Source: an uncultured bacterium
GTDB lineage: Bacteria > Krumholzibacteriota > Krumholzibacteriia > WVZY01
Direction: 5' to 3'
Length of the DNA stretch: 64,000 bases
Assembly: GCA_964654695.1 (NCBI GenBank)
Contig: CAZZKJ010000004.1
Span: 30,043-94,042, forward strand
Part shown: piece by piece, positions 31,766 through 58,527 of the stretch
Position numbering within the stretch: the first letter of the stretch is position 1
How the letters are laid out: each line of letters starts with the position of its first letter
Made by a program: the position numbers and the translations under genes
Notes under the pieces: model-generated
Seen by the model: only the letters and a program-made list of their open reading frames with translations
The model's database searches: none
Told to the model about the DNA's origin: nothing

Positions 31766-32734
31766 TTAATGCTCCCTCAATAGCTTATCTAGTGCTCTGG
31801 CGAGCTCTCTTCCCCTTAAAGACTTATAGCGAATATTGCCTTTGCGGTCCAGAAGGAATGTTGCCGGAATGGATCGAACACGATACTGATGAGCTATGCT
31901 GTTTTTCCATCCTTCTCCGTCAAAATACTGCGGCCAATCAATCCCGTTTTCCTTGATATATTTTTCAACGGATTCTCGTTTGCTGTCCAGCGAAACCCCG
32001 ACGATCTCGAAACCCCTGGCGCTGTGCTTTTTGTAAAGCTCTATTACATTAGGCATTTCTTTTCTGCATGGACCACACCACGTAGCCCAAAAATCGATCA
32101 ACACGACTTTGCCCTTTAGCTTCTTGAGTGACAGGGCTTTACCCTTCATATCCTTGACTTTGAACGGTATGGGAGGATTCCCTACCGTCAGTTTCTTGAG
32201 AACTTCCAGGTCCTCAAGGTTCGTTTTTGCTTCGTTTGTCAGGCGCACATCGATATCGGAATATTCATTAATAAACTTATTATAATATTTTTTGGCCAGA
32301 TCGAACTGTTCTGAGGTTACATAATTCTTCGCAATAAAATAATTAGCATATCCCAGTCTCTTGCGTTTGGTCGCGGCGGCACCCTTTATGAAATCTTCCA
32401 AATATTTTATAGCTTTATCATTCTTGTTTATATTTGTATTTAACATACCAAGCTGATATTTAACATCCAAAGATTCATCGGCCTCGGGATACTCTTCAAC
32501 GAACCGCAGCATTCTTTCTTCAACCTTATCGAAAACCTCCAGAATCTTTTCCATCGAAGCTCCACGCGTTACGCTGTGTTCCAAAACTTTTAACTCAGAC
32601 ATAAGTTTTTCATACGCATCCTTGGAACTCAATTCACTTTCGGATGCTGAGAAAGAACTCATAACTGTCAGGAACGCCATTATCAACAAAGGCAATGCGG
32701 TTAAACCGCGTTTACTGGCGAAGAATGTTCTCAT
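31766..32734 (-). CDS. TlpA-like periplasmic thiol-disulfide oxidoreductase (redoxin) with N-terminal TPR-like helical domain
   Basis: Signal peptide; WATWCGPCRKEMP CxxC thioredoxin motif. Confidence 0.75.
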   Translation of the reverse strand: MRTFFASKRGLTALPLLIMAFLTVMSSFSASESELSSKDAYEKLMSELKVLEHSVTRGASMEKILEVFDKVEERMLRFVEEYPEADESLDVKYQLGMLNTNINKNDKAIKYLEDFIKGAAATKRKRLGYANYFIAKNYVTSEQFDLAKKYYNKFINEYSDIDVRLTNEAKTNLEDLEVLKKLTVGNPPIPFKVKDMKGKALSLKKLKGKVVLIDFWATWCGPCRKEMPNVIELYKKHSARGFEIVGVSLDSKRESVEKYIKENGIDWPQYFDGEGWKNSIAHQYRVRSIPATFLLDRKGNIRYKSLRGRELARALDKLLREH

Positions 32735-32761
32735 TATTCCATCCTTTTTTTCGGGAGCAGG

Positions 32762-33781
32762 CTATAGAGTTCTTGCAATCAATCGAATCTTCAATGTCGG
32801 TTCTTGAGGATCATCGGTCTTGATAATCATTTCATCCGAATAATTCCTCCTGGAGCTATCCGGCGTGAAATTTACCCGAACGACGTATTTTCTGCCGGAT
32901 TCAATAGGATTGATCGACGCCGAATAGTAATCCCTGCTGAAATCGATGTGTTTTATCTTGAACTCGCCTTTTATTTTGCTTACCGTAATGGTTTTCTGAT
33001 AGCCTTTCGGAGTTTGAGACTTTCCCCCGACTTGAACCCTGCCGAAATTGATGATTGAAGGCTGAGCTTTTATCATCGCGCGCGTCGTAACATTGACTTG
33101 AATGACTTTCTCAGGGCTGTGTTTGCTGTTGGTGTGCACCTTGATAGATCCCCACGTATTGACCGCGGGAAGCTTCGGATTCTTCCAGATACGGATTTTG
33201 AACGAATTAGGAGTGTTACCTTTGTCTACTTTGTATGTAATCTTCTCATCTATGTTGGATTCCAGTTTCGTAATGGCGAAGTTTTCGCCGGACTCGTTAG
33301 ATATAATGTCTATTTCCTTTTCGACCGGTTCTCCAAACATGCCGGCTAGATATACGCGGTCGGCAGGTTGAACTTCCACATAGTGCCTGATCGTTCCCGA
33401 TAGAGTAAGAGTCATCCTCGGGTGTTTGGGATCATTCGATATTACGGTTGCACTTTTATTGAAGGTGCCGTGCACCCTTTTTCCATCGATTTCCAGAGTC
33501 ACTTTTCCCTCCTGACCAGGAGGAATGACCTTATCAAACTTGGCCACTGTGCAGCCTCACCCAGGTTTTACACGGTTGATAACCAGGTCGGCTTTGCCCT
33601 TATTGCGGATCATGAATTCATGCTTGAACGTTTCTATTTCGAAAACCGTTCCGAAATCATGTCTTAACTTTGATATAAAAATCTCTGGTTGATTGCCCTC
33701 GGTTTTCGCTGCTTGTACCGGGAAAAAAGCAAACAGTATGAGCAAAATAGCAAAGTATCCTGCCGTCATATTTTTTCTCAT
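32762..33781 (-). CDS. DUF1573 domain protein (secreted, two tandem Ig-like DUF1573 units) with an in-frame TGA at 33557..33559 at the position of the first Cys of the conserved SCGCT motif. Candidate selenoprotein; alternatively a nonsense-disrupted gene.
   Basis: The ORF track splits the gene in two (33557..33883 and 32762..33547), but the junction reads INRVKPG-[TGA]-GCTVAKFDKVIPPG, against the DUF1573 consensus ..ASCGCTVP.W....PG. Start reassigned to the ATG at 33781 (MRKNMTAGYFAILLILFAFFPVQA signal peptide), which has an AAGGAG RBS 7 nt upstream. TGA is used as an ordinary stop in neighbouring genes (porB, dsbD, the FAH gene). Confidence 0.5.
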
Positions 33782-33917
33782 AAAACGTCTCCTTATCCTC
33801 GAACAAATTCCGACATTGGACATGCTGAATCTCCCATGAATTATACATTTGTCAAATATAAAGTTCCAGGAATTTTTGCTCAAGTCGGTGAATATGGCGC
33901 CTTGGAAACAGGGCGAT

Positions 33918-35465
33918 TCATTCCTTAAGCAGGAAATCCGCGCTTTGTTCCGCCAGGAGGGCAGAGCAGTCTATACTTCTGATTATACTCCTCCTGAACT
34001 TTCGGCTTTCGGCGCACTTTTCCGTAAGATCAACAACGGACCCGTCGCCACCGGCGGGACCACCGGGGGTGATCAATTTTACGCAAGGACGATGGAGAAA
34101 CCGAGTATCATGATTGGGCTTTACTACTATCCCGGTCTCTTTGGTATCCAATTCGACCCCCGTACCTACAGGATAAAGCCCCATAGTTCTTATAAATACT
34201 TTCGCCAGGAATGGATCAAATATTTCCCCGCTTTTCTGAAATATGAACCTCATTACCTTGTCCTGCCTGAGAGGAATCGGCCTGTAGACACGAGGAGAAG
34301 TCATGGCATCATAATAATCGGAAATGGTTACAATTCTGGAGAACAACCTAAGACGCCATGCGGTGTTTTTGCGCGGATAGCCGTTAAGGTCGTAATGAAC
34401 ATGGTGCTGAAGAGAAACAAACATGGCATCGGCCATTTCCCTCAAAGCTTTTACCTTGGAGAGCTCTTTTATTCCGAAAAATGTGTGATATTTCATCAAT
34501 TCCCAGTCTTTTCCCTTTAGTTCATTAGGATTGTTGATTATGGATTCAGGAATATAGACTTTCCCAATATCATGAAACAGGGCCGCCAGCCCCAAACGGG
34601 CTATATCGCCTTTGCACAACCTCAGTTTATCGCCCACGGCCATGGAAAGAATGCAGACGTTAACGGAATGGGCAAACGTGTATTCGTCGAAGTTCTTTAT
34701 ACTGGCGAGTCCCAGCAGAATCGATTCATCGGTTTGCATAATATCAACCATCTGCTGTGTCAGCCTTTTGGCTTTTCTGACTTTTATCACGTGGCGCTCT
34801 TCGATCGCCTGAACAACCTCCTTCATCAAAGCCACGGTCCTGAAAAATATCCGGTTGCTTTCTATTTTTATATTCTTTCTTTCCTGGTTGTAATCCCTCA
34901 AGCGCCTTTCCATTGCAACATATTGAGATATGCTTATATGTGGCAGTTCAAGTGCGGCGAGTTTTTTCTCCAAACGATCATATGGATAATCTCCGTCTTC
35001 AAGTTCATAGAATGTTTTAAGGAAATTCGCTATTTCATCGGGCATAACACCTTCATTGAACTCGATGCTTTCAACTTCTTTTTTCTTCATCTCATCCATG
35101 AGAAATTGGAAAGCGCTGAAATACTGGGAATCGGCCTTGATGCGTACATCATTTATGTTTATGTATTCCGCAGCCAGCCGGACGGCGGCACGGCTGCCTT
35201 CAGCGAAATAGCTCCCCAGGTTATCCATTAGCTCGGACAGCACGCGTTTGACGGCATTATTGTCGAGCTTATAGATCTGCACCATTTTGCTTGCGGAAAA
35301 AAGCGAATGAATCAGCGCCAATCCCCTGCGGTTCAGTGATATCAATTCATCGCGTTCGGCGGTTTCTTCACCCGCAGCGGCCTTTTTCGCCTTGTCCGGC
35401 GCATCACCGGCAGAGTCCTCGATTAAATCCTCTGTTAAAGTTCTATATTCATTATCATCAGACAT
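33918..35465 (-). CDS. HD-GYP domain c-di-GMP phosphodiesterase-like protein
   Basis: AALFHDIGK (HD motif) and HHVHYDLNGYPR (GYP motif). Confidence 0.75.
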   Translation of the reverse strand: MSDDNEYRTLTEDLIEDSAGDAPDKAKKAAAGEETAERDELISLNRRGLALIHSLFSASKMVQIYKLDNNAVKRVLSELMDNLGSYFAEGSRAAVRLAAEYININDVRIKADSQYFSAFQFLMDEMKKKEVESIEFNEGVMPDEIANFLKTFYELEDGDYPYDRLEKKLAALELPHISISQYVAMERRLRDYNQERKNIKIESNRIFFRTVALMKEVVQAIEERHVIKVRKAKRLTQQMVDIMQTDESILLGLASIKNFDEYTFAHSVNVCILSMAVGDKLRLCKGDIARLGLAALFHDIGKVYIPESIINNPNELKGKDWELMKYHTFFGIKELSKVKALREMADAMFVSLQHHVHYDLNGYPRKNTAWRLRLFSRIVTISDYYDAMTSPRVYRPIPLRQDKVMRFIFQKSGEIFDPFLAKVFIRTMGLYPVGTGVELDTKETGIVVKPNHDTRFLHRPCVKLITPGGPAGGDGSVVDLTEKCAESRKFRRSIIRSIDCSALLAEQSADFLLKE

Positions 35466-35493
35466 TGCTCTGCTCCAGTATCGGCTTCACTCT

Positions 35494-37323
35494 TCAACCT
35501 TTCCTTAAAGAAACAAGCGCCTTTTTCGCGCGGGTGCTTATCAAGCTGCTGGAATCCAGCGATAATTCTTCTAAAAGAGGAAGCGCCCCCGGAATATTGA
35601 TATTCTCCAATGCCCGGACGGCCAAAAGTTTGTTCTCTCTGTTTTTTCCGCCCTGCATAAACCCTCTTTTCTGAATCATCTCTTTGAGCTTATCCAGAGT
35701 TTCCTCGTCTGCACTGTAACCCAGTATTCTAAATGTCAATTCTTTCTCATCCTGATCTTTTTTTGTGAATTCCTTTGTAAAAGCAATTGAATGCAGAAAC
35801 TTCTTGATAATTATGCTTTTCTTTCCTTCCAGGGAGTGAAAGGCTTTCAATCTTATTTTTTTCTCATCATCCTTCGCCAATTTGAGCAGCAGCCCTATCG
35901 CATGCTCGTTATCGATATTTCCGAGATATTTTACAAGCTCTTCCCTGACACGGATGTCGGGATAAAAAATCAGCTCCCGTATTCTCTGAGGAATATTTGA
36001 TAGGCCTGATTTATTAACCATGTAGACAGCGGCCTCGGCCGCCTCCCACTTCTCTATCAGCATGTTCTCGATTACTTCTTCTACGGAGTCGCCGGAAACG
36101 TCAACCAGGCAGTCGCATAACTCTCGGCGCAGGCGGCTGTTCGATGCGGTCTGAATTATCCTGACGAGCACAGGAACGGCGGAGTCGCCCGCCATCCTGA
36201 AATAAGCCAGCACATCTTTCGCGGCGGCATTCCTTTGATCCAATTGTTTGGATACTGCTGTAAGAAGTTCCTCTGTTGTAAGCTTTTTTTCCATTTGTAA
36301 GCATAATTCCCGAACGCTCGAGTTGGATTCCGTGTCGGCAGTGAAGTTCATGAAAATTTCGAGCACGGAGCAGAGCCTCGCCGGCTCCGGCAAATTAATG
36401 AAATAATCCGCGAACTTTTCAATAATATTGGCAATATCTCGTAATACTGATTGGTTGTTGGAGAGAAGGGAGAATTCCAACATTGTCCGCAGCAGGCCCA
36501 TCAAGCTGTCTTTTCGTTTTTCTCTCAGCAGTTCCTCGCCGCACAGTTTCAATTCATGCGATCCAATCTTAAAAGTGGTTTGCAGAAGTTCTTCAAACTC
36601 TTCTTCCATCAACTCCTGATTTCCATTCGGATTGATGCTCGCATGCAAATTTCTGAAATAATACTCCAGCGAATCCTCAGCTTCGTTGGATTCAACGATT
36701 ACCCTTCCCTTATCCTTGAAAATTGGAATCAACTCGGCATGATCAGCGCTGTCTAATGATGATTGACCGGATCCCAGCGTATTTTTGCCGTCGCCGAATT
36801 CGCCCGACAGGTATTCATCAAGCACTCTGTACGTTATATAATCGAAATCAGCTTTCCAAAGACGGGTGACGATATCCTCGTCGGATGAGGATCTGCGCAT
36901 ATCGTGAATCAGCAAATCTATGAACGTATCCAGTTCCTTGAATGAAACACCGTCTCGAAATGTAACTTCACCGATTCCATCCTTGTAAAGAGTGAACGCA
37001 ATACTCTCATCGCGCCTCGTATTTTCATACACTTTCTCGCCGTCCCATTCGAGGCGGAATTGATTGACGGCCAGAACCAGTTCCTGCTGTTCCTGGAAAC
37101 ATTCCCGCAAGCTGTTTTCGAGCTCCCTGGCAAAATTAGCCAGTATGGGATTATTTGCGGTATAGAGCTTTTTGCCGGATAAATACTTGGAAAATGCTTT
37201 TATGAAATGCTTTACCTTGAGGGGGGCATCCCTGCGCTCATCGGAAAGACCATCGTGGCAACTCTGCTGATTAGAAGCACGTACATGCTCCTTGGGCCCA
37301 GATTCTTTTAGCTTTTGGTCCAT
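35494..37323 (-). CDS. HEAT-repeat (PBS-lyase-like) protein of unknown function, co-oriented immediately upstream of the HD-GYP gene
   Basis: C-terminal third contains several HEAT-like repeats (e.g. AIGLLLKLAKDDEKKIRLKAFHSL; ALPLLEELSLDSSSLISTRAKKAL). Confidence 0.45.
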   Translation of the reverse strand: MDQKLKESGPKEHVRASNQQSCHDGLSDERRDAPLKVKHFIKAFSKYLSGKKLYTANNPILANFARELENSLRECFQEQQELVLAVNQFRLEWDGEKVYENTRRDESIAFTLYKDGIGEVTFRDGVSFKELDTFIDLLIHDMRRSSSDEDIVTRLWKADFDYITYRVLDEYLSGEFGDGKNTLGSGQSSLDSADHAELIPIFKDKGRVIVESNEAEDSLEYYFRNLHASINPNGNQELMEEEFEELLQTTFKIGSHELKLCGEELLREKRKDSLMGLLRTMLEFSLLSNNQSVLRDIANIIEKFADYFINLPEPARLCSVLEIFMNFTADTESNSSVRELCLQMEKKLTTEELLTAVSKQLDQRNAAAKDVLAYFRMAGDSAVPVLVRIIQTASNSRLRRELCDCLVDVSGDSVEEVIENMLIEKWEAAEAAVYMVNKSGLSNIPQRIRELIFYPDIRVREELVKYLGNIDNEHAIGLLLKLAKDDEKKIRLKAFHSLEGKKSIIIKKFLHSIAFTKEFTKKDQDEKELTFRILGYSADEETLDKLKEMIQKRGFMQGGKNRENKLLAVRALENINIPGALPLLEELSLDSSSLISTRAKKALVSLRKG

Positions 37324-48072: not shown

Positions 48073-50523
48073 TCAGCTGTCTTCCGCTTCGTAGAACTCC
48101 TTTATTTGTTCGGCGTTATTACGAAGTTTTTCATCAACCATAAAATGAACCGAGTTTTTTTCAAACTTTCCATCGGGCAGGCGCATTCCGGCGGGCCGGC
48201 CGGTTAGCAGTTCAATGCCTTCATCAATCGTATTTACTGCGAAAACATGAAACTTGCCCTTTTCAATAAATTCTATCACATCTTTTCTCAACATAAGATC
48301 CTTGATATTCCGTGAAGGGATCATTACTCCTTGAGAGCCCGTTAATCCGGAAGCATTGCAAACGTCAAAGAAACCTTCGATTTTTTCGTTAACGCCTCCG
48401 ATCGGCTGTATCTCTCCTTTTTGATTAACGGAACCCGTAACAGCCAGATCCTGGCGCAGCGGAATCTCGGCCAGGCTCGATAGAAGCGCATAGATTTCAG
48501 TGGAAGAGGCGCTGTCGCCGTCGATACCGCTGTAAGATTGCTCGAAACAGATACTAGCGCTCATGGTAAGGGGTTTATCCTGAGCATACTGTCTCCTCAG
48601 AAAACCTTCGAGGATCAGAACTCCTTTGTTGTGTGTCTTGCCGCTTAAATCGGCTTCCCTTTCGATATTGATTACGCCCGCCCGGCCCAGCGCCGTCTCC
48701 GTAGTGATCCGGCTCGGCCTGCCAAAAGAATAATCACCCAAATCATATACCGATAATCCATTGATCTGACCGATAGTCTTGTTTTTGACATCGAGTAGAA
48801 TCGCTCCGTCTTCGATCATTTCCTGAACTTTTTCCTCGAAAAGATTAACACGGTGTATTCTCTCTGCAACCGCGCGCGCAACATGTTTCTCATCGACGAT
48901 TTTACATTCTTCTTTCTTTGCCCAATAGCTGGATTCCCTGATGATATCCGCTATATCGCTGAACCTGGTTGATAGCTTGTTATTCTGTCCGGCCAGGCGT
49001 ATCCCTTCTTCGATAATTGCCGCCACAGCCGTATTATAAAACGGCAGAAGATTGTCTTCTTCAGTCAAGTTCCGGACAAACTGAGAGTATTTATCCAGGT
49101 TTTCCTGCGTATTTGGCATTACATCATCGAAATCCGCTTTGACTTTGAAAATCTTTCTGAAATCTTCATCATACGAATATAGCATTTGATAAGAATACGC
49201 ATCTCCAATAAGAGCGATTTTTATATCGATTTCAATTGGTTCAGGTTTTATGGCGGAGTACTGTGTGAGAAAAAAGGCGTCGAATCCTTGAATTGAAACT
49301 TTTTGATTCTTGAGCGCCCGTTTGAGAGCCGGCCAGACTGCCGGTTCCTCTAAAACATCATTGAGGTTCAAAACCAGAAAGCCGCCGTTGGCGCGAATCA
49401 ATGAGCCCGCCCGTATTCTGGTAAAATCGGATATATGGTCGCCCTTTGCATCCGAACGCCTCTCGATGGTGCCGAACAGGTTGCCGTAACTCGGCGCCGT
49501 TTCTATGATGACGGGGACGCCCTTTGAACGCGAATTATCAACCAGGACATTAACCTCGAACTCCACTGATTCCTGCTTTGGCGAATCCCGATCCCCATCT
49601 TTATCGAGCGTCTCCTTGAACATATCCAGGTTTTCTATTATATGCTCTTCCAGGCTTTTCAAAAGGATTCGTACTTTTTTGTAATCGAATTTTTCAGTCG
49701 CATCTTTTACGCACATCTTGACAATCGGACTCACAGTATTTTTCTCCAGATCAGATATTTTATCGGCGACTTCCCTGTCAAGCTGTCGGCTTTCTCTGAG
49801 AAATTCCTCCATCTTTGCAGCCAGGTCCTCATGATCCAATTGGATTTGAGTCAATTTCTCCGCCGACAGCTTGCCTTCCTCAACCATTGCCGGAAGCTTC
49901 TCCATTGCTACTGCCTGGCCTTCGATCAAAGGCATTATCTCGGGCCTTGTAAAAGGTCCGTACTGAACCTCGAATAGCGAGAATCCCTTTTCGGCGATGG
50001 TTTTTTCGAATCGTGTCGCGATGACGTTTCTCTTTTCTTTGAAATCCTCCAATACCCGTTTCTGTTTCTCCTTGAACTTTTCATCTTCTAAAACTTGGGG
50101 AATATGCCTCATTAATGTGGAAAACATGTCGGCCATTTCTCTTTTGAATTTTACACCTTTGCCGGACGGCAGCATAATGCAGATGGGCATGTCGGGAGCA
50201 TTGAAATTATGAACATAGCAAATATCACTTAATTCTTTTTCTTCCATCTCCATGCTTTGCAAAAGACGCTTTATAGTAGTCGATTTCCCCGTGCCCGTGA
50301 GCCCGGATACAAAGATGTTATAGCCCCGTGTTTTCATTTCGAGGCCCAGTTTAATTGCATTTATCGCCCGCTCCTGACCGATAATATCTCCGCAGCAGGG
50401 CAGTTCGGCGGTGGTTTCAAAATTCAATTTATTTGGATCGCATTTCCATCTCAATTGCTCTACGGCGATTTCATTTGGGGATTTTTTCATTGGATAGGAT
50501 CTCCTTCTGCGGATAATTACCAT
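48073..50523 (-). CDS. Lon-related ATP-dependent protease (AAA+ module with large insertion plus C-terminal S16 Lon protease domain; TIGR00764/LonC-like)
   Basis: Walker A GLTGTGKST; C-terminal DGDSASST (catalytic Ser block) and the downstream Lys region. Confidence 0.7.
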   Translation of the reverse strand: MVIIRRRRSYPMKKSPNEIAVEQLRWKCDPNKLNFETTAELPCCGDIIGQERAINAIKLGLEMKTRGYNIFVSGLTGTGKSTTIKRLLQSMEMEEKELSDICYVHNFNAPDMPICIMLPSGKGVKFKREMADMFSTLMRHIPQVLEDEKFKEKQKRVLEDFKEKRNVIATRFEKTIAEKGFSLFEVQYGPFTRPEIMPLIEGQAVAMEKLPAMVEEGKLSAEKLTQIQLDHEDLAAKMEEFLRESRQLDREVADKISDLEKNTVSPIVKMCVKDATEKFDYKKVRILLKSLEEHIIENLDMFKETLDKDGDRDSPKQESVEFEVNVLVDNSRSKGVPVIIETAPSYGNLFGTIERRSDAKGDHISDFTRIRAGSLIRANGGFLVLNLNDVLEEPAVWPALKRALKNQKVSIQGFDAFFLTQYSAIKPEPIEIDIKIALIGDAYSYQMLYSYDEDFRKIFKVKADFDDVMPNTQENLDKYSQFVRNLTEEDNLLPFYNTAVAAIIEEGIRLAGQNNKLSTRFSDIADIIRESSYWAKKEECKIVDEKHVARAVAERIHRVNLFEEKVQEMIEDGAILLDVKNKTIGQINGLSVYDLGDYSFGRPSRITTETALGRAGVINIEREADLSGKTHNKGVLILEGFLRRQYAQDKPLTMSASICFEQSYSGIDGDSASSTEIYALLSSLAEIPLRQDLAVTGSVNQKGEIQPIGGVNEKIEGFFDVCNASGLTGSQGVMIPSRNIKDLMLRKDVIEFIEKGKFHVFAVNTIDEGIELLTGRPAGMRLPDGKFEKNSVHFMVDEKLRNNAEQIKEFYEAEDS

Positions 50524-53792: not shown

Positions 53793-54178
53793 AACGCAGG
53801 AGTCCCGCTAAAGAGTTCAAAACAACAGCAGCAGTATCGGGACATCCTTATGGAAGTCCGCGGTCATAAACATAACTCAAACTCCGATACTCCCGGCTTT
53901 ATCGGATGATGATTCGCGGGCAAGAGCAGTTTTGATCAGATCCCTTATCGCTTCGGAACGGCTGCCGCAACCTTTTTATAACATTCTTCTTCCGATTTCG
54001 GCGGAGGAGAGTGTAACACAGATAATATTTTCGTGCTAGTTGATTTCCGGTGTTTCAGGGCAAAATTGAGATGGCAGGTCCGGATACGATCTGGTATTGT
54101 TATTGATCTCGAACGTATGCTTCAGCTATGATGCCGTCATCGAGTCCGAACCCGCAAACCGAACGCGATTGGGAAGAA

Positions 54179-54727
54179 ATGGCCTGGATTGAAGTTATAA
54201 AAGAAGACGACGCTCGGGGTTATCTTAAAACCCTGTATAAGAAATTCGGCAATCCTTTCGAGGGCGTTGACAACATCCTCAAGATACATAGTCTCAATCC
54301 TGAATCCCTTAAATACCATTATGATCTCTACAAACATCTTTCTTCGGGCCGGTCCGGTCTCAGCAGGATGCAAAGGGAAATGATAGCCGTCGTTGTGTCC
54401 GGCGCAAACAACTGCCATTACTGAGTGACCCACCACGCGAAGAGTCTCTTCCGATTAACCAAGAATAAGAACCTCGTCGAATCAATCCAGAGCGACTTCA
54501 GAAACGCTGATATCGGACAGAAAGATACGGTCATGCTGGAATACGCGGAAAAACTCGCCGTCTCTCCATGGAAAGCAGAGAAAAGTGACTGTGATCAATT
54601 GAGAAATGCCGGGTTCAAGGATGCGGATATTCTCGACATCGTTCAAGTGGCGGCCTATTTTTCATTCGTGAACCGCATTGCCAGCGGTCTCGGGGTTGAA
54701 TTAGAAAAGTATTGGGAAGAAAAGTGA
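54179..54727 (+). CDS. AhpD / carboxymuconolactone-decarboxylase family 'peroxidase-related' protein (TIGR01926-like) with in-frame TGA (54422..54424) at the second position of the C-x-x-C motif. Selenoprotein (C-x-x-U).
   Basis: The ORF track splits the gene at the TGA: ...VVSGANNCHY-[TGA]-VTHHAKSLF... = CxxU...H, where the AhpD family has CxxC...H. Start reassigned to the ATG at 54179 (MAWIEVIKEDDARGYL...), as homologues of this family begin MxWI. AhpD-like proteins are a known bacterial selenoprotein family. Confidence 0.7.
54436..54453 (+). promoter_or_regulatory. Candidate bacterial SECIS stem-loop immediately downstream of the UGA of the AhpD-like gene
   Basis: With U of UGA = 1: stem C16-G17/(C bulged at 17-18)/GAAGA : UCUUC closing a GUC loop with G23-U24. 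This reproduces the E. coli fdhF SECIS geometry (bulge at ~17, conserved G23 U24). Confidence 0.5.
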
Positions 54728-54791: not shown

Positions 54792-55883
54792 TCAAGGCAG
54801 GAATCTTTCCGGATGCTTTATCTTTTCCGGAAGGTAATTATCGATAACGTAATTCAATCCGTGCTTGGCCAGCGCCTGTTGTTCCGCCCTTACTCCCATC
54901 TTGATCATTCGCTCCAGGGCTCTTTGCCACGGATTATGATGAAGCACAAAAGGATCATTCTTAAGAGCATCCTTCGCTCTTTTTATATCAACTTCCTTGA
55001 GGGGATGTGTGGGGAGTTCGTATTTAATAATATCATTTGGAGTTATACCCAGGAACTTTGCCTGCGGCACGCAAAAATATTCGTTTAAATGAGCTGAATT
55101 ACCGCTGCCCACTTTAAGCGTGCGGTAGATGTTGCTCATCCCGTACGGATCACCGTCGACAAAAACATAAACCGGCAGCTTTTTCTTGTCGGACAGCCTC
55201 CTTATAAAACGCCTGCATGCGCGAGTCGGCACACCTCCCATGGATACCAGGATGCAGTCGGCTTTTTTCCAATAGCTGTGCTTCACCAGGCGTTGGAACA
55301 TTCCCGCCGTTTCTATAGCGAGAATAAAAGTCGCTTTCGTTTCAAAATCAAGCTCCTCAACGGATATGGGAATCGAGTATGCTCCGCTTCCGAATTTCGT
55401 GCAGTCGATTTTCAAAGATTTCCCAGTATCACGATCCTTATCGATTACTACAAGTTTTCCTGCGACCTCTCCACCTTTTTCTTCGGGAATAAACCCCAGC
55501 TGCTCGCGGTTCAATCCGAAGAATGCCTCTATGTCATCCATGACTGTATCCGATTCGGTCTGCTCATTGAACCTCGCCGCATCCCAGTTTTTCGATACGT
55601 AATAGGCTTCCCTTTTAGTGGCTATATCATTGGTTTCAGCTAATTCTTTCGACAGGGCCATCATGCGCAGCGACTGCGCGTAGGTTTTTACTGTATTAAC
55701 GGTGAGGGTTCGCTCCTTTTTCTTGCCGCGCATCTCGAAAAAACCTCTCCGCGGGTGATAGCGGACGTTCGAAAGCGACCGGAGCGGGAGTTTCATGGAA
55801 GGTTTATTTCCTTTCAGGATAGAATCCTTGACCCTCTTCGCTTCACTCTTGATAAGCTTGGCAACTTTCTCGGTGGACGACAA
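54792..55883 (-). CDS. top6A: DNA topoisomerase VI subunit A (Spo11/Top6A; winged-helix plus Toprim)
   Basis: TKREAYYVS (catalytic Tyr region), Toprim acidic residues (LAIETAG ... VFVDGDPYG). Confidence 0.8.
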   Translation of the reverse strand: MSSTEKVAKLIKSEAKRVKDSILKGNKPSMKLPLRSLSNVRYHPRRGFFEMRGKKKERTLTVNTVKTYAQSLRMMALSKELAETNDIATKREAYYVSKNWDAARFNEQTESDTVMDDIEAFFGLNREQLGFIPEEKGGEVAGKLVVIDKDRDTGKSLKIDCTKFGSGAYSIPISVEELDFETKATFILAIETAGMFQRLVKHSYWKKADCILVSMGGVPTRACRRFIRRLSDKKKLPVYVFVDGDPYGMSNIYRTLKVGSGNSAHLNEYFCVPQAKFLGITPNDIIKYELPTHPLKEVDIKRAKDALKNDPFVLHHNPWQRALERMIKMGVRAEQQALAKHGLNYVIDNYLPEKIKHPERFLP

Positions 55884-55928
55884 CGACTGCTCCTTTGCAT
55901 TATGAACTGTTTGCCGGATTGCGCGGAA

Positions 55929-57662
55929 CTACATTTTCCGGCTCCGCTCAAGTGTGTTCTTCAGTTTCGACACAACGCGTTTCTCCTCTTTTTCCGAAAA
56001 TGACAGGATCTCACGCAGGGCTATACCGATGTGAGGTATATATTGCTCTATATAAGAAGTTTTCTTTGCTTCCTCGCGGGCTTTTATACCTTTCCTGATG
56101 AATCTTCCAAGCTTTCTTCCACATTCCTGCAGAGCCAGCTTGATTTCCTTTATGATTTCCGGGTAATGGGCTAAAGCTTCCTTGCTTTCCGAGGTGAACG
56201 GCACCCAAACCGAAGCAATATGCACGATGATAACCATGGGCGCGCACGGGAGCGCCCCTCTGGATTGCTGGATATTATAACCTTTCCAGGCGATACCGAT
56301 GACCGATTGGGTAATTGCGCATGCCGACTGCTGGTAGATCAGGGGAGTCCGGTTTGCAAATCTATTGAGCTTTATCGTTTCATCATCATCATGACCGGCA
56401 CTACCGTACGCTATGGCGGCTTCTATCTGAAAGGGATTGCCGCGGTAAACCGCGGGCGGCCTCGTTGCGGCGGCAAAAAACTTTGCATCTGTTTCGCGGC
56501 TCAGGCTCTTGATAAGAAGGTCTTCTCCTATGGAGGACAGGCAGTTTGTAGGCGGCTTCATAAGCCTGGCGCCGGAGAACGCATTCAAAAGAGCTTCGGC
56601 TTTTTCCCGGGACAGTCTCTTGGGTGAGGTGGAAGATGACAACCCTGCCCGGTCGATAATTTCCTGCGAGCTTTTAGCACTAACCCGGGAAAACTCCGAG
56701 GTGAGAAATCCACTTAAATTGCGGGACTTGGTCGTTTTCAACATGTCAATAAGCACGCCCAGTTCCACGCCGTGCGGGTGCGGTTTTATCGTTAAAGGTT
56801 CTTCGGGCAGCTTGTCGCTCAGGCGCTCGTAAACAACCTCTCCATCCTTCGGTCCCCTGTAGACCATGTGTACATGCGGGTTGGCGATGGCCACCTGCCG
56901 GATATATGCATCAACCGAACGCTGTCCGCGCTTATATGACGCCAGCATTTCCATCTCGATCCTGGTTCCATGTTCTTTTTCCCAGGACACTTCTTTTTCC
57001 GATAGAATAACAGGCGTATTGCTTTTGGTGTTGATCTGGAGTTCATATGTCCGTGCGGGTCTTCCGGCTCCGGTCTTCGAGACTATTCTCACCGGTTTCC
57101 CGGTTGTAAGCTGGGAGTACATCACCGCAGCGGAAATACCTATACCCTGCTGTCCTCTAGACTGCTTCAGAGAATGAAATTTCGAACCATAAAGAAGCTT
57201 GCCGAAAATTTTCGGCACCTGGGCTTTTACGATTCCGGGCCCTGAGTCTTCGACTATGCAGCAAAACCTGTTTTCTTCCAGTTCCTTTATCTCCACAAGG
57301 ATGTCGGGAAGGATGTGCGCTTCTTCGCAGGCATCGAGGGAATTATCAACCGCTTCCTTGACGGCGGTCAGCAAGGCTTTTGGAAGACTGTCAAAACCAA
57401 GCAGGTGCCGGTTCTTGGCAAAAAACTCGCTTATGGAAATTTCTCTTTGCTTAAGAGCAATCGCCTGTGCCGTTCTGTGGGTATCTTGTGAAACAGCTGG
57501 TTTTTTGTTTTTCTTTGCCTGACCGGAATCATTTTCAGAATTAAAAAGAGGCAGATCATCAACTCTTCTTTTCGGTTTTCCGCTCTTTTTTACAAGCTTC
57601 TTGCCGGCTTTGACCACTACATTCTCCAAACTAAGCTGTGAAGCTGCCATGGAATAACCCAC
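55929..57662 (-). CDS. top6B: DNA topoisomerase VI subunit B (GHKL/Bergerat ATPase plus transducer). GTG start.
   Basis: Bergerat-fold N-box EAVDNSLDA, G1/G2 boxes (DSGPGI, GQQGIGISAA); B-then-A order as in archaeal top6BA operons. Confidence 0.8.
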   Translation of the reverse strand: MGYSMAASQLSLENVVVKAGKKLVKKSGKPKRRVDDLPLFNSENDSGQAKKNKKPAVSQDTHRTAQAIALKQREISISEFFAKNRHLLGFDSLPKALLTAVKEAVDNSLDACEEAHILPDILVEIKELEENRFCCIVEDSGPGIVKAQVPKIFGKLLYGSKFHSLKQSRGQQGIGISAAVMYSQLTTGKPVRIVSKTGAGRPARTYELQINTKSNTPVILSEKEVSWEKEHGTRIEMEMLASYKRGQRSVDAYIRQVAIANPHVHMVYRGPKDGEVVYERLSDKLPEEPLTIKPHPHGVELGVLIDMLKTTKSRNLSGFLTSEFSRVSAKSSQEIIDRAGLSSSTSPKRLSREKAEALLNAFSGARLMKPPTNCLSSIGEDLLIKSLSRETDAKFFAAATRPPAVYRGNPFQIEAAIAYGSAGHDDDETIKLNRFANRTPLIYQQSACAITQSVIGIAWKGYNIQQSRGALPCAPMVIIVHIASVWVPFTSESKEALAHYPEIIKEIKLALQECGRKLGRFIRKGIKAREEAKKTSYIEQYIPHIGIALREILSFSEKEEKRVVSKLKNTLERSRKM

Positions 57663-57692
57663 TGATAATCGAGGATAAATCAGGGCAACCTA

Positions 57693-57720
57693 ATCATAAA
57701 CATTGTTCATTGACAAGCAA
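57693..57720 (-). promoter_or_regulatory. Putative sigma70-type promoter for top6B-top6A (TTGCTT-16 nt-TATGAT)
   Basis: Read on the minus strand about 30 nt upstream of the top6B start; by eye only. Confidence 0.25.
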
Positions 57721-57773
57721 AATTATAGAGAATTTCAATAATGCGGAAGTAAACTGCCGCCCGGCAAACACTC

Positions 57774-57803
57774 AAAAAAAAGGGCGCCTAAGGCGCCCTT
57801 TGC
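57774..57803 (-). terminator. Strong intrinsic terminator hairpin (GGGCGCC-UAA-GGCGCCC) flanked by A8 / U-run; potentially bidirectional
   Basis: Perfect 7-bp GC stem. On the minus strand it is followed by UUUUUUUU, downstream of the TSP3 lipoprotein gene and upstream of top6B. Confidence 0.6.
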
Positions 57804-57969: not shown

Positions 57970-58527
57970 TTAATTAACGTCCAGTGAATCTTCTGGAGAA
58001 GAATGTTCGTCTTCGTTCTCTACCTCGATTTCTACCGCATTGACGGTATCGGTCACTACAACAAATCCATGAACTTCGACCCGCATACCTACCAATAAAT
58101 CGCTAAAATCAAGATGAATATCTTCTTCTCTTTCTATCTTCGTGGAATCATTTACAAGTACCGTGGTGCCGAAAACAACCAGGCTTGACGACGATTTGCT
58201 TTCGATGAATCCCTCGAGCTCCATAAAATTATCATCATGATCGTCGATAATATCGTCCCCGTCCAAGTCTTCTTCATCGTCATCCAAAATTCCGTCGTTA
58301 TCGTCATCAGAATCCAGGTCATCAGGGATTCCATCGTTATCATCATCGGTATCTATAATATCAATAATGCCGTCGCCGTCGGTGTCTCTTTGCGATGCCA
58401 TGATTTTATAACCAGCCTGGCCGCCTTGTGACGAACCCGTTATCGAATCGGTTCCGCATGAAGCAAGCAGGATGCTGGCTATAAAGGCCGCGAGGATTGT
58501 AAAAAACAACATTGCTTTGGTTTTCAT
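57970..58527 (-). CDS. Acidic lipoprotein with thrombospondin-type-3-like Ca2+-binding repeats
   Basis: Lipobox LLASC; repeated DxDxDGxxDxxD units (DTDGDGIIDIIDTDDDNDGIPDDLDSDDDNDGILDD). Confidence 0.6.
   Translation of the reverse strand: MKTKAMLFFTILAAFIASILLASCGTDSITGSSQGGQAGYKIMASQRDTDGDGIIDIIDTDDDNDGIPDDLDSDDDNDGILDDDEEDLDGDDIIDDHDDNFMELEGFIESKSSSSLVVFGTTVLVNDSTKIEREEDIHLDFSDLLVGMRVEVHGFVVVTDTVNAVEIEVENEDEHSSPEDSLDVN

Follow-up and report, generated by a model that had tools for sequence, protein, structure and literature searches.

Among the enzymes that unlink DNA, topoisomerase VI (topo VI) is described as a preferential decatenase (McKie et al. 2022, PMC8837201). Its presence in bacteria was surveyed by Allen and Maxwell (2024, PMC11302465), who found it in 17 bacterial families, including Anaeromyxobacter, Bdellovibrio, Nitrospira and Pirellulales. 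All of the topo VI-bearing bacteria in that survey have gyrase, and topo IV accompanies it only in members of the Pseudomonadota and Terrabacteria. The same authors placed the bacterial clusters near Methanococcales and near the DPANN archaea, inferred a transfer from archaea, noted that bacterial subunit B (Top6B) lacks the Ig-like C-terminal domain, and considered that the role of topo VI in bacteria remains to be established. Here we describe a topo VI gene pair, top6B and top6A, of an uncultured bacterium of the Krumholzibacteriota, contained in a stretch of 64,000 nucleotides (nt) (NCBI GenBank assembly GCA_964654695.1, contig CAZZKJ010000004.1, positions 30,043 to 94,042 of the forward strand), which is referred to below as the window.

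Our favoured reading, to which as a whole we assign a probability of about 0.85, is that the pair encodes a competent and native topo VI (A2B2) from a single archaeal source near DPANN, which would work as a decatenase beside gyrase in replacement of topo IV, and whose Top6B tail would dock a partner through a conserved motif. The window enzyme resembles those of the published survey in being archaeal-derived, in its placement near Methanococcales or DPANN and in a Top6B without the Ig-like C-terminal domain. It differs in its host, because neither Latescibacterota nor Krumholzibacteriota are among the surveyed families, and in belonging to a far larger clade. As bacterial topo VI had already been surveyed, the headline of the initial annotation of this DNA, an archaeal-type topo VI in a bacterium, is correct but not new; what is new here is the host lineage, the size of the clade and a bacterial-only Top6B tail with a motif. 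The genes and the elements of the enzyme are located in the window as follows:

54792..55883, minus strand: top6A, topoisomerase VI subunit A, 363 amino acids (aa), composed of a winged-helix domain with the catalytic Y95 and a Toprim domain.
55599..55601, minus strand: codon of the catalytic tyrosine (Y95) of top6A.
55884..55928, minus strand: spacer of 45 nt between top6B and top6A, with a Shine-Dalgarno sequence, AAAGGAG, at 55890..55896, read from the sequence.
55929..57650, minus strand: top6B, topoisomerase VI subunit B, 573 aa, recognised by Pfam, NCBIfam and PDB matches.
56061..56555, minus strand: transducer domain, Top6B residues 366-530, with WKGY455 and the switch lysine K490, from Pfam Topo-VIb_trans.
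57063..57383, minus strand: Bergerat-fold (GHKL) ATP-binding core, Top6B residues 90-196, from Pfam HATPase_c and residue mapping onto Sulfolobus shibatae.

The Top6A protein, read from a TTG start 6 nt past the Shine-Dalgarno sequence, is identical to a public gene call (P0001). It passes the cut-offs of all three Pfam domains of the subunit (TP6A_N, 56 bits against a cut-off of 26; Topo_VI_alpha, 68 bits; TOP6A-Spo11_Toprim, 206 bits) and matches the Methanocaldococcus jannaschii structure 1D3Y in PDB with an E value of 1.5e-113. Catalytic positions were taken from the published residues and mapped by alignment to the structure chains. In this way, R91 and Y95, which occur in an R-x-x-Y-Y context of the winged-helix, CAP-like domain, correspond to R99 and Y103 of M. 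jannaschii, and the Toprim acidic residues E191, D243 and D245 to E197, D249 and D251. Identity reaches 58% with M. jannaschii, 35% with Methanosarcina mazei and 34% with S. shibatae.

The reading frame of top6B could begin at a first GTG, giving 55929..57662, although the ATG at 57650 is the likelier start and yields a protein of 573 aa identical to a public gene call (P0419). The protein is laid out as an N-terminal tail, a GHKL ATPase, an H2TH and a transducer, and lacks the Ig-like C-terminal domain that is present in M. mazei Top6B. It has Pfam matches to HATPase_c and Topo-VIb_trans (185 bits), exceeds the NCBIfam equivalog cut-offs (NF003218, 682 versus 274 bits; TIGR01052, 534 versus 381) and finds M. 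mazei 2Q2E in PDB with an E value of 6e-154. By alignment, the N box residues E99 (general base) and N103 (Mg-binding) and the DxGxG (G1) residues D135, G137 and G139 are the counterparts of E38, N42, D76, G78 and G80 of S. shibatae, the glycine-rich ATP lid (G2, S156-G169) is intact, with G166-G169 equivalent to G106-G109, and K490 equals the switch lysine K427, which senses the gamma-phosphate. The DNA-sensing elements are also kept, the WKxY motif as WKGY455 and the KGRR-like loop as KRGQR240. An AlphaFold2 model (predicted template modelling score 0.71) has M. mazei Top6B as its best PDB match, with a template modelling (TM) score of 0.73, and the comparisons with the M. mazei and S. shibatae proteins range from 0.68 to 0.73; sequence identity to them is 47% and 34%, respectively.

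Judged from these residues, both subunits look catalytically competent. The complete top6B plus top6A announced at 54792-57662 by the initial annotation is therefore borne out by the Pfam, PDB and, for Top6B, NCBIfam matches and by the intact catalytic residues, and so is the B-then-A order as in archaea, with the genes 45 nt apart on the minus strand. Domains, catalytic and ATP-binding residues, WKxY and KGRR-like elements and gene order are all shared with the archaeal enzymes of known structure (1D3Y; M. mazei 2Q2E and 9O0G; S. shibatae 2ZBK), from which the window enzyme differs in its bacterial host and in a basic, disordered tail of 60 residues with an LPLF motif at the N-terminus of Top6B.

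Topo VIII fuses its B and A moieties in one polypeptide. Such a fusion is not the case here, where two open reading frames (ORFs) are separated by a stop codon and a Shine-Dalgarno sequence. We give next to no credence to a reading of the pair as topo VIII, as a Mini-A type IIB enzyme or as a Toprim nuclease similar to JetD/MksG of Wadjet systems. The type IIB superfamily, the Bergerat ATPase and the Toprim and winged-helix modules are indeed common to topo VIII and Mini-A, and the Toprim region weakly resembles JetD (28 bits), which would suit a defence nuclease. The window enzyme, however, consists of separate subunits with very high scores to topo VI-specific hidden Markov models (HMMs), from 200 to 680 bits, and its Top6B is complete from the ATPase through the H2TH to the transducer. 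Neither jetABC nor mksBEF genes lie nearby, and the context is chromosomal, neither plasmid nor viral, whereas plasmids and other mobile elements are the main carriers of topo VIII (PMC7671362). Topo VIII, Mini-A and plasmid-borne type IIB enzymes were thus ruled out by the two subunits, the topo VI HMMs and plasmid matches that were only those of haloarchaeal megaplasmids at ~35% identity. A defence nuclease (Wadjet/MksBEFG) was ruled out as well, PADLOC returning only the 28-bit JetD match over the Toprim and the neighbours being a lipoprotein and an AhpD-like selenoprotein.

The genomic surroundings of the pair are those of a bacterial chromosome. About 50 ORFs of the window with Pfam annotation include NuoA, DsbD, pyruvate:ferredoxin oxidoreductase, fumarase and CbiMNQO, together with a type IV pilus / type II secretion system (T2SS) cluster (secretin, PilM, PilO, E and F proteins, pilins) and a sigma-54 activator with its kinase. 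No integrase or transposase occurs among these ~50 ORFs, and no gyr or par gene among the annotated ORFs of the window; within the window there are no tRNA genes, and nothing was found in it among Rfam structured RNAs. The composition of top6A (GC 0.473, GC at third codon positions (GC3) 0.538, codon-usage distance 0.221) and of top6B (0.494, 0.538 and 0.251) falls inside the distribution of the window, whose means are 0.492, 0.540 and 0.275. The closest locus (L001), which comes from an independent assembly, carries cbiM, an AhpD-like gene, top6A, top6B, a lipoprotein gene, an outer membrane protein-like gene and ntrC, so that the same genes flank the operon on both sides as in the window. 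The downstream AhpD-like gene is kept in six relatives, L001 and five more, and a LonB-like gene in four; the named relatives that share the downstream neighbours are Latescibacterota or Krumholzibacteriia. The host is most likely an FCB-group bacterium in or near the Latescibacterota or Krumholzibacteriota. Searches for mobile relatives returned no close plasmid sequences, no matches in phage records and IMG/VR, and only weak GHKL similarity in PHROGs.

A recent horizontal acquisition, a mobile element, or a chimeric or archaeal-contaminated assembly could be imagined for proteins that are archaeal in origin and share 58% (A) and 47% (B) of their residues with methanogen enzymes, and near-identical copies exist in some metagenome-assembled genomes (MAGs) labelled as different phyla. 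We nevertheless consider it very improbable, given a composition and a codon usage that match the flanks, the lack of an integrase or transposase nearby and of a tRNA gene within the window, the same flanking genes in an independent assembly, and plasmid, phage and viral relatives that were not found. Composition, codon usage and the flanks common to L001 argue against a chimera, an archaeal contaminant or a recent insertion of a mobile element, and support an operon that is native to the bacterial chromosome and stably inherited. A chimeric contig or recent transfer was ruled out on these grounds, and a phage or viral origin on the database results. Several statements of the initial annotation hold in consequence: the clearly bacterial context (secretin, DsbD and Nuo, to which PilM, the T2SS E/F proteins, the sigma-54 activator and CbiMNQO can be added, with NuoA as the Nuo component), and the possible stable inheritance outside any mobile element. 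Of the outcomes that it named as refuting, neither a kinship with topo VIII or plasmid IIB enzymes nor an archaeal or chimeric contig was borne out. The comparison of GC and codon usage with the flanks that it had proposed was carried out, as was the phylogeny of both subunits, to which we now turn.

In a protein library clustered at 50% identity, a single full-length Top6A representative (P0269, 64%) exceeded 41% identity to the window protein, all others being at or below 41%. A search from M. jannaschii Top6A returned Methanococcales at 79-98% and then matches at 58-67%, which are Woesearchaeota or Nanoarchaeota wherever they are named. The named DPANN Top6A proteins are mostly 70-74% identical to that of the window, with three at 60-63%, and the Methanococcales ones 54-58%; most of the named DPANN proteins are nearer to the window protein than to Methanococcales. 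The DPANN contigs are truly archaeal, with RIO1, a KH/PNO1-like protein, Trm1, aS21 and EF1-beta, and a RIO1 - KH/PNO1-like - top6B - top6A neighbourhood is conserved in their loci (L081-L088).

A neighbour-joining tree of Top6A (91 sequences, 360 columns, 100 bootstraps) groups Methanococcales, DPANN and Bacteria with 100% support, and DPANN with Bacteria again with 100%. The bacterial clade, with 24 sequences of which 23 are named bacterial, receives 80% and arises within a weakly resolved DPANN grade. In the neighbour-joining tree of Top6B, 199 of 200 replicates recover the Bacteria as one clade, and the grouping of Bacteria with DPANN appears in the same number. The trees of both subunits put the window sequences with the bacterial clade next to DPANN. 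At the level of these alignments, they show bacterial topo VI as one clade, nearest to DPANN (Woesearchaeota/Nanoarchaeota), with Methanococcales next, a placement that agrees with Allen and Maxwell (2024, PMC11302465). The bacterial enzymes would then derive from a single archaeal source nearest DPANN topo VI and would have been inherited within bacterial lineages afterwards. The DPANN enzymes are the nearest relatives of that of the window also in Top6B (53-56% identity), and their B and A genes are adjacent, with top6B directly upstream of top6A in all six distinct loci. They differ from it in an archaeal genomic context, in B and A genes that overlap in 5 of 6 loci, and in a Top6B without the basic N-terminal tail and with an acidic C-terminal tail, where a YDEEFAKIGKE-like motif is conserved in 5 of 6. 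The sequence TIGLDAF is present in two of the DPANN Top6B N-termini.

How widespread is this enzyme among bacteria? The initial annotation regarded topo VI as sporadic in Bacteria, which understates its occurrence. When one genome per GTDB species was scanned, at least 577 stretches in species-representative genomes were found to encode a relative, and the best 80 of these at least 577 are all from bacterial MAGs, with Top6A 75-87% identical to the window protein. The labels among the best 80 include Latescibacterota, Krumholzibacteriia, Eisenbacteria, Acidobacteriota, Myxococcota, 'Fibrobacteraceae' and Binatia, and identity to the window Top6A reaches 80-82% in proteins labelled Myxococcota and Planctomycetota. 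In the sequence covered around these 80 loci, top6B lies upstream of top6A in 72, a few of them with one or two genes in between. Such a very strong conservation of Top6A across phyla suggests an essential function.

Other observations concern the members of this family. Across the 80 bacterial loci, Top6A is conserved with respect to the window far more than Top6B (75-87% versus 52-75%). One bacterial subclade (L035, L041, L044, L051, L052, L056, L070 and L075) has a gene of ~500 aa between top6B and top6A, whose HEGGHALYE motif we take to be that of an M32-type carboxypeptidase, and the Top6B proteins of these loci lack the N-terminal tail and its motif. Three soil MAGs labelled Eisenbacteria, Binatia and Dormiibacterota (L029, L036 and L038) have almost identical Top6A, and the Top6B of the two that were examined, L029 and L036, are also close neighbours; these near-identical copies reflect either mis-binning or a very recent transfer between phyla. 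Finally, some Top6A-containing proteins are 570-1060 aa long (P0292, P0297, P0300, P0303, P0306, P0314-P0316 and others), and for most of them the match to the query is split into two separate segments; the group may comprise intein-bearing or fused proteins.

The most distinctive trait of the bacterial enzymes is found at the N-terminus of Top6B, where the window contains the following elements:

57471..57650, minus strand: bacterial-specific N-terminal extension, Top6B residues 1-60, basic and predicted to be disordered, from homology and predicted local distance difference test (pLDDT) values.
57543..57557, minus strand: D32-L33-P34-L35-F36 motif, the sole conserved island of the tail, a candidate short linear motif of the beta-clamp-binding-like kind.
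Within the same tail: the peptide KRRVDDLPLFNSEND, which spans L35 and F36.

Homology with M. mazei Top6B starts only at residue 61 of the window protein, and the preceding tail, which begins MAASQLSLENVVVKAGKKLVKKSGKPKRRVDDLPLFNSENDSGQAKKNKKP..., is basic, with a pLDDT below 50 for residues 1-54 of the model. For the 118 closest Top6B homologues, the median tail length is 94 aa and the composition is enriched in A, K, R, S and P, whereas the tail is short or absent, and non-basic, in the eight archaeal Top6B compared (six DPANN, M. mazei and S. shibatae). A motif x-L-[P/S]-L-F occurs in 110 of the 118 close homologues, against 0.33 expected and a maximum of 3 in 500 composition-preserving shuffles. 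Its residues L33, L35 and F36 are each at least 90% conserved in the alignment (A1) and its flanks are not. The motif logo reads (P/V)-E-T-L-P-L-F-(D/G/A)-(E/D), and the 30 residues ahead of it have a net charge of +7.4.

At the equivalent place, Myxococcota and 'Deltaproteobacteria' have QLGLF, and Acidobacteriota classes QLRLF and QMKLF. More distant bacterial loci add the variants QLDMF, QTALF, TLDLF, QLELI and QLSL[VI], as well as the hexapeptide-like QAELSF, QATLDF and QEELLF; 29 of 59 distant loci match the motif variants, against 0.9 expected. The distant proteins without the motif have short N-termini and no tail. The survey of Allen and Maxwell (2024, PMC11302465) makes no mention of an N-terminal extension or motif of Top6B.

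These variants recall the motif by which proteins bind the beta sliding clamp, which has been defined as Q-phi-x-L-F, with the consensus QL[S/D]LF and the hexapeptide form Q-phi-x-L-x-L, where positions 1, 4 and 5 weigh most, as exemplified by QLELF, QLNLF and QVELEF (bioRxiv 10.64898/2026.05.27.728225). Like clamp-binding motifs, that of the tail combines a phi residue at position 2 with L-F at positions 4-5 and is placed in a disordered terminal segment; unlike them, it has D, T, G or S at position 1 in the window and its subclade, and usually Pro at position 3. As read from the peptides, the likeness is strong in the variants that contain Q; it is partial in the DLPLF of the window. A possible precedent for a clamp motif without Q is the TFPLF of UmuD. 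We put forward two hypotheses. The basic Top6B tail would increase the affinity for DNA at the ATP gate, for which the lysine-rich tails that raise the processivity of actinobacterial topoisomerase I are a precedent, and the conserved xL[P/S]LF motif would be the docking site of a partner, with the beta sliding clamp as the most plausible candidate.

A more specific proposal can be formulated, which we regard as tentative and probably not right in all its parts. After one DPANN-like transfer, the tail motif would have become beta-clamp-binding, with QLxLF in Myxococcota/Acidobacteriota and TLPLF or DLPLF in Latescibacterota/Krumholzibacteriota as the candidate motif, and topo VI would act as a clamp-tethered decatenase that clears precatenanes behind the fork, in replacement of topo IV in several large uncultured phyla. 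If this holds, docking on the clamp would be seen for the first time in a type II topoisomerase. The opposite view, that xL[P/S]LF is not clamp-binding at all, has in our opinion even odds: the tail would be a lysine-rich DNA-binding appendage, and the motif would serve another docking, a degron or a contact with the protein's own ATPase. The window and its subclade do lack Q at position 1, which is important for the clamp, and have Pro at position 3, and in the literature that we searched, no connection of the clamp with topo VI, or with any other type II topoisomerase, was found. Yet canonical or hexapeptide-like sequences (QLGLF, QLRLF, QMKLF, QTALF, QAELSF, QATLDF, QEELLF) occupy the equivalent place elsewhere in the family, the motif belongs to a disordered tail at the end of the protein, the typical location of clamp-binding motifs, and it is a feature of bacterial Top6B that is absent from all eight archaeal proteins examined.

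Turning to function, the favoured reading of a native topo VI standing in for topo IV entails a mechanism modelled on homology with the archaeal enzymes. A topo VI holoenzyme is characterised by separate subunits in an A2B2 assembly, by ATP-dependent strand passage and by cleavage with a 2-nt stagger. The two GHKL domains of Top6B would dimerise on ATP and trap a T-segment, while two Top6A subunits would cut the G-segment, with Tyr95 as the covalent link and E191, D243 and D245 holding Mg2+. The transducer, through its switch lysine K490, would couple ATP hydrolysis to strand passage, and the net outcome would be relaxation and, by preference, decatenation. In the cell, topo VI would decatenate the chromosome alongside gyrase and take over from topo IV; from the published distribution, such a role as an ATP-dependent decatenase standing in for topo IV is probably the right one. 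The disordered basic tail gained by bacterial Top6B would contribute DNA affinity at the ATP gate, and its motif would hold topo VI on beta clamps located at the fork or behind it.

Topo IV (ParC2ParE2) would thus share with topo VI the presumed job of ATP-dependent decatenation of replicated chromosomes beside gyrase, but it is an enzyme of the unrelated type IIA build, which has three gates and produces 4-nt overhangs. The E. coli enzyme is recruited via MukB and SeqA, and a clamp link is not reported in a review of it. Topo VI might instead supplement a full set of gyrase plus topo IV, in a specialised and non-essential role such as the handling of positive supercoils ahead of forks or of particular catenanes. 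We think this unlikely, because in the published survey the three-enzyme state is confined to Pseudomonadota and Terrabacteria, the other topo VI bacteria being without topo IV (PMC11302465), and because Top6A is conserved at 75-87% across phyla.

Some results weigh against the favoured reading and should be considered together. Top6A stays below every NCBIfam equivalog cut-off, its best model being NF003337 with 490.9 against 675; the equivalogs of this set (PRK04342) are narrow and lineage-specific, and their cut-offs are very high. The trees were built by neighbour-joining from Kimura distances, as opposed to maximum likelihood, the DPANN grade has low internal support, and the taxon labels are the MAG submitters' own. 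As for the tail, 27-30 of the 59 distant bacterial Top6B have neither tail nor motif, the count depending on how the near-misses QLDMF and QLSLV are taken, and the DLPLF of the window fits the clamp-binding consensus at positions 2, 4 and 5 but has no Q at position 1.

The arrangement of the operon deserves a separate comment. The 45-nt spacer between top6B and top6A, in which a terminator scan called none, implies that both genes are presumably co-transcribed. Upstream of top6B, two further elements were located:

57718..57727, minus strand: candidate -10 region, formed by TATAAT (57722..57727) overlapping TAATTTTG (57718..57725), ~70 nt upstream of the ATG; weak.
57779..57801, minus strand: intrinsic terminator of the upstream lipoprotein gene, with a 10-bp stem, 7 GC pairs and a T-run.

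The initial annotation had the pair bracketed by a strong terminator and a sigma70-like promoter, a description that stands in part. The hairpin is real, but it lies upstream of top6B and ends the lipoprotein gene, so that it does not close the topo VI operon; read in this way, it is predicted to insulate top6BA as a transcription unit of its own. The promoter is reduced to its -10 box: the TATAAT at 57722..57727 is perfect but lacks a good -35 element, a sigma-70 scan from the terminator to the top6B start (57663..57778) called no promoter, and the promoter-like sites of the region are at expectation (7 versus 6.3 in shuffles).

At its other end, top6A converges on the AhpD-like gene. This AhpD/CMD-like gene (54128..54727, plus strand) has an in-frame TGA at 54422..54424 within a C-H-Y-U redox motif. 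The TGA is the same in five homologues at the same genomic position, and a sixth has a Cys codon (CEYC); conserved and swapped for Cys in a classic selenocysteine/cysteine (Sec/Cys) pair, it identifies a real selenoprotein. A small conserved hairpin of the GGAAGAG-GUCU-CUUCC type occurs ~15 nt past the UGA, with a folding energy that is not exceptional. The upstream lipoprotein gene (57970..58527, minus strand) encodes a lipobox LLASC, acidic DxDxDG repeats of calcium-binding type and a DUF5666 domain; of the relatives, L001, the closest, is the only one to keep it.

A few kb downstream of top6A, the window encodes a LonB/LonC-like AAA+ protease of 816 aa (48073..50523, minus strand) that combines an archaeal-LonB-type lid with LonC helical domains, and that is found near the operon in four relatives, three of them labelled Krumholzibacteriia. 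Farther away, a block at 32000..37000 has a GC of 0.41-0.47, versus ~0.50 elsewhere, and holds thioredoxin/TPR, DUF1573, HD-domain and HEAT-repeat proteins.

The operon of the window is of interest mainly as one representative of a large clade of uncultured bacteria. Far from being a curiosity of a few genomes, topo VI is encoded in hundreds of such species by a housekeeping gene pair that is conserved and has been maintained by vertical descent. The Top6B tail, with its clamp-binding-like motif, offers a lead on how an archaeal enzyme joined bacterial chromosome replication. And if these lineages are without topo IV, drugs directed against type IIA enzymes would spare their decatenase.

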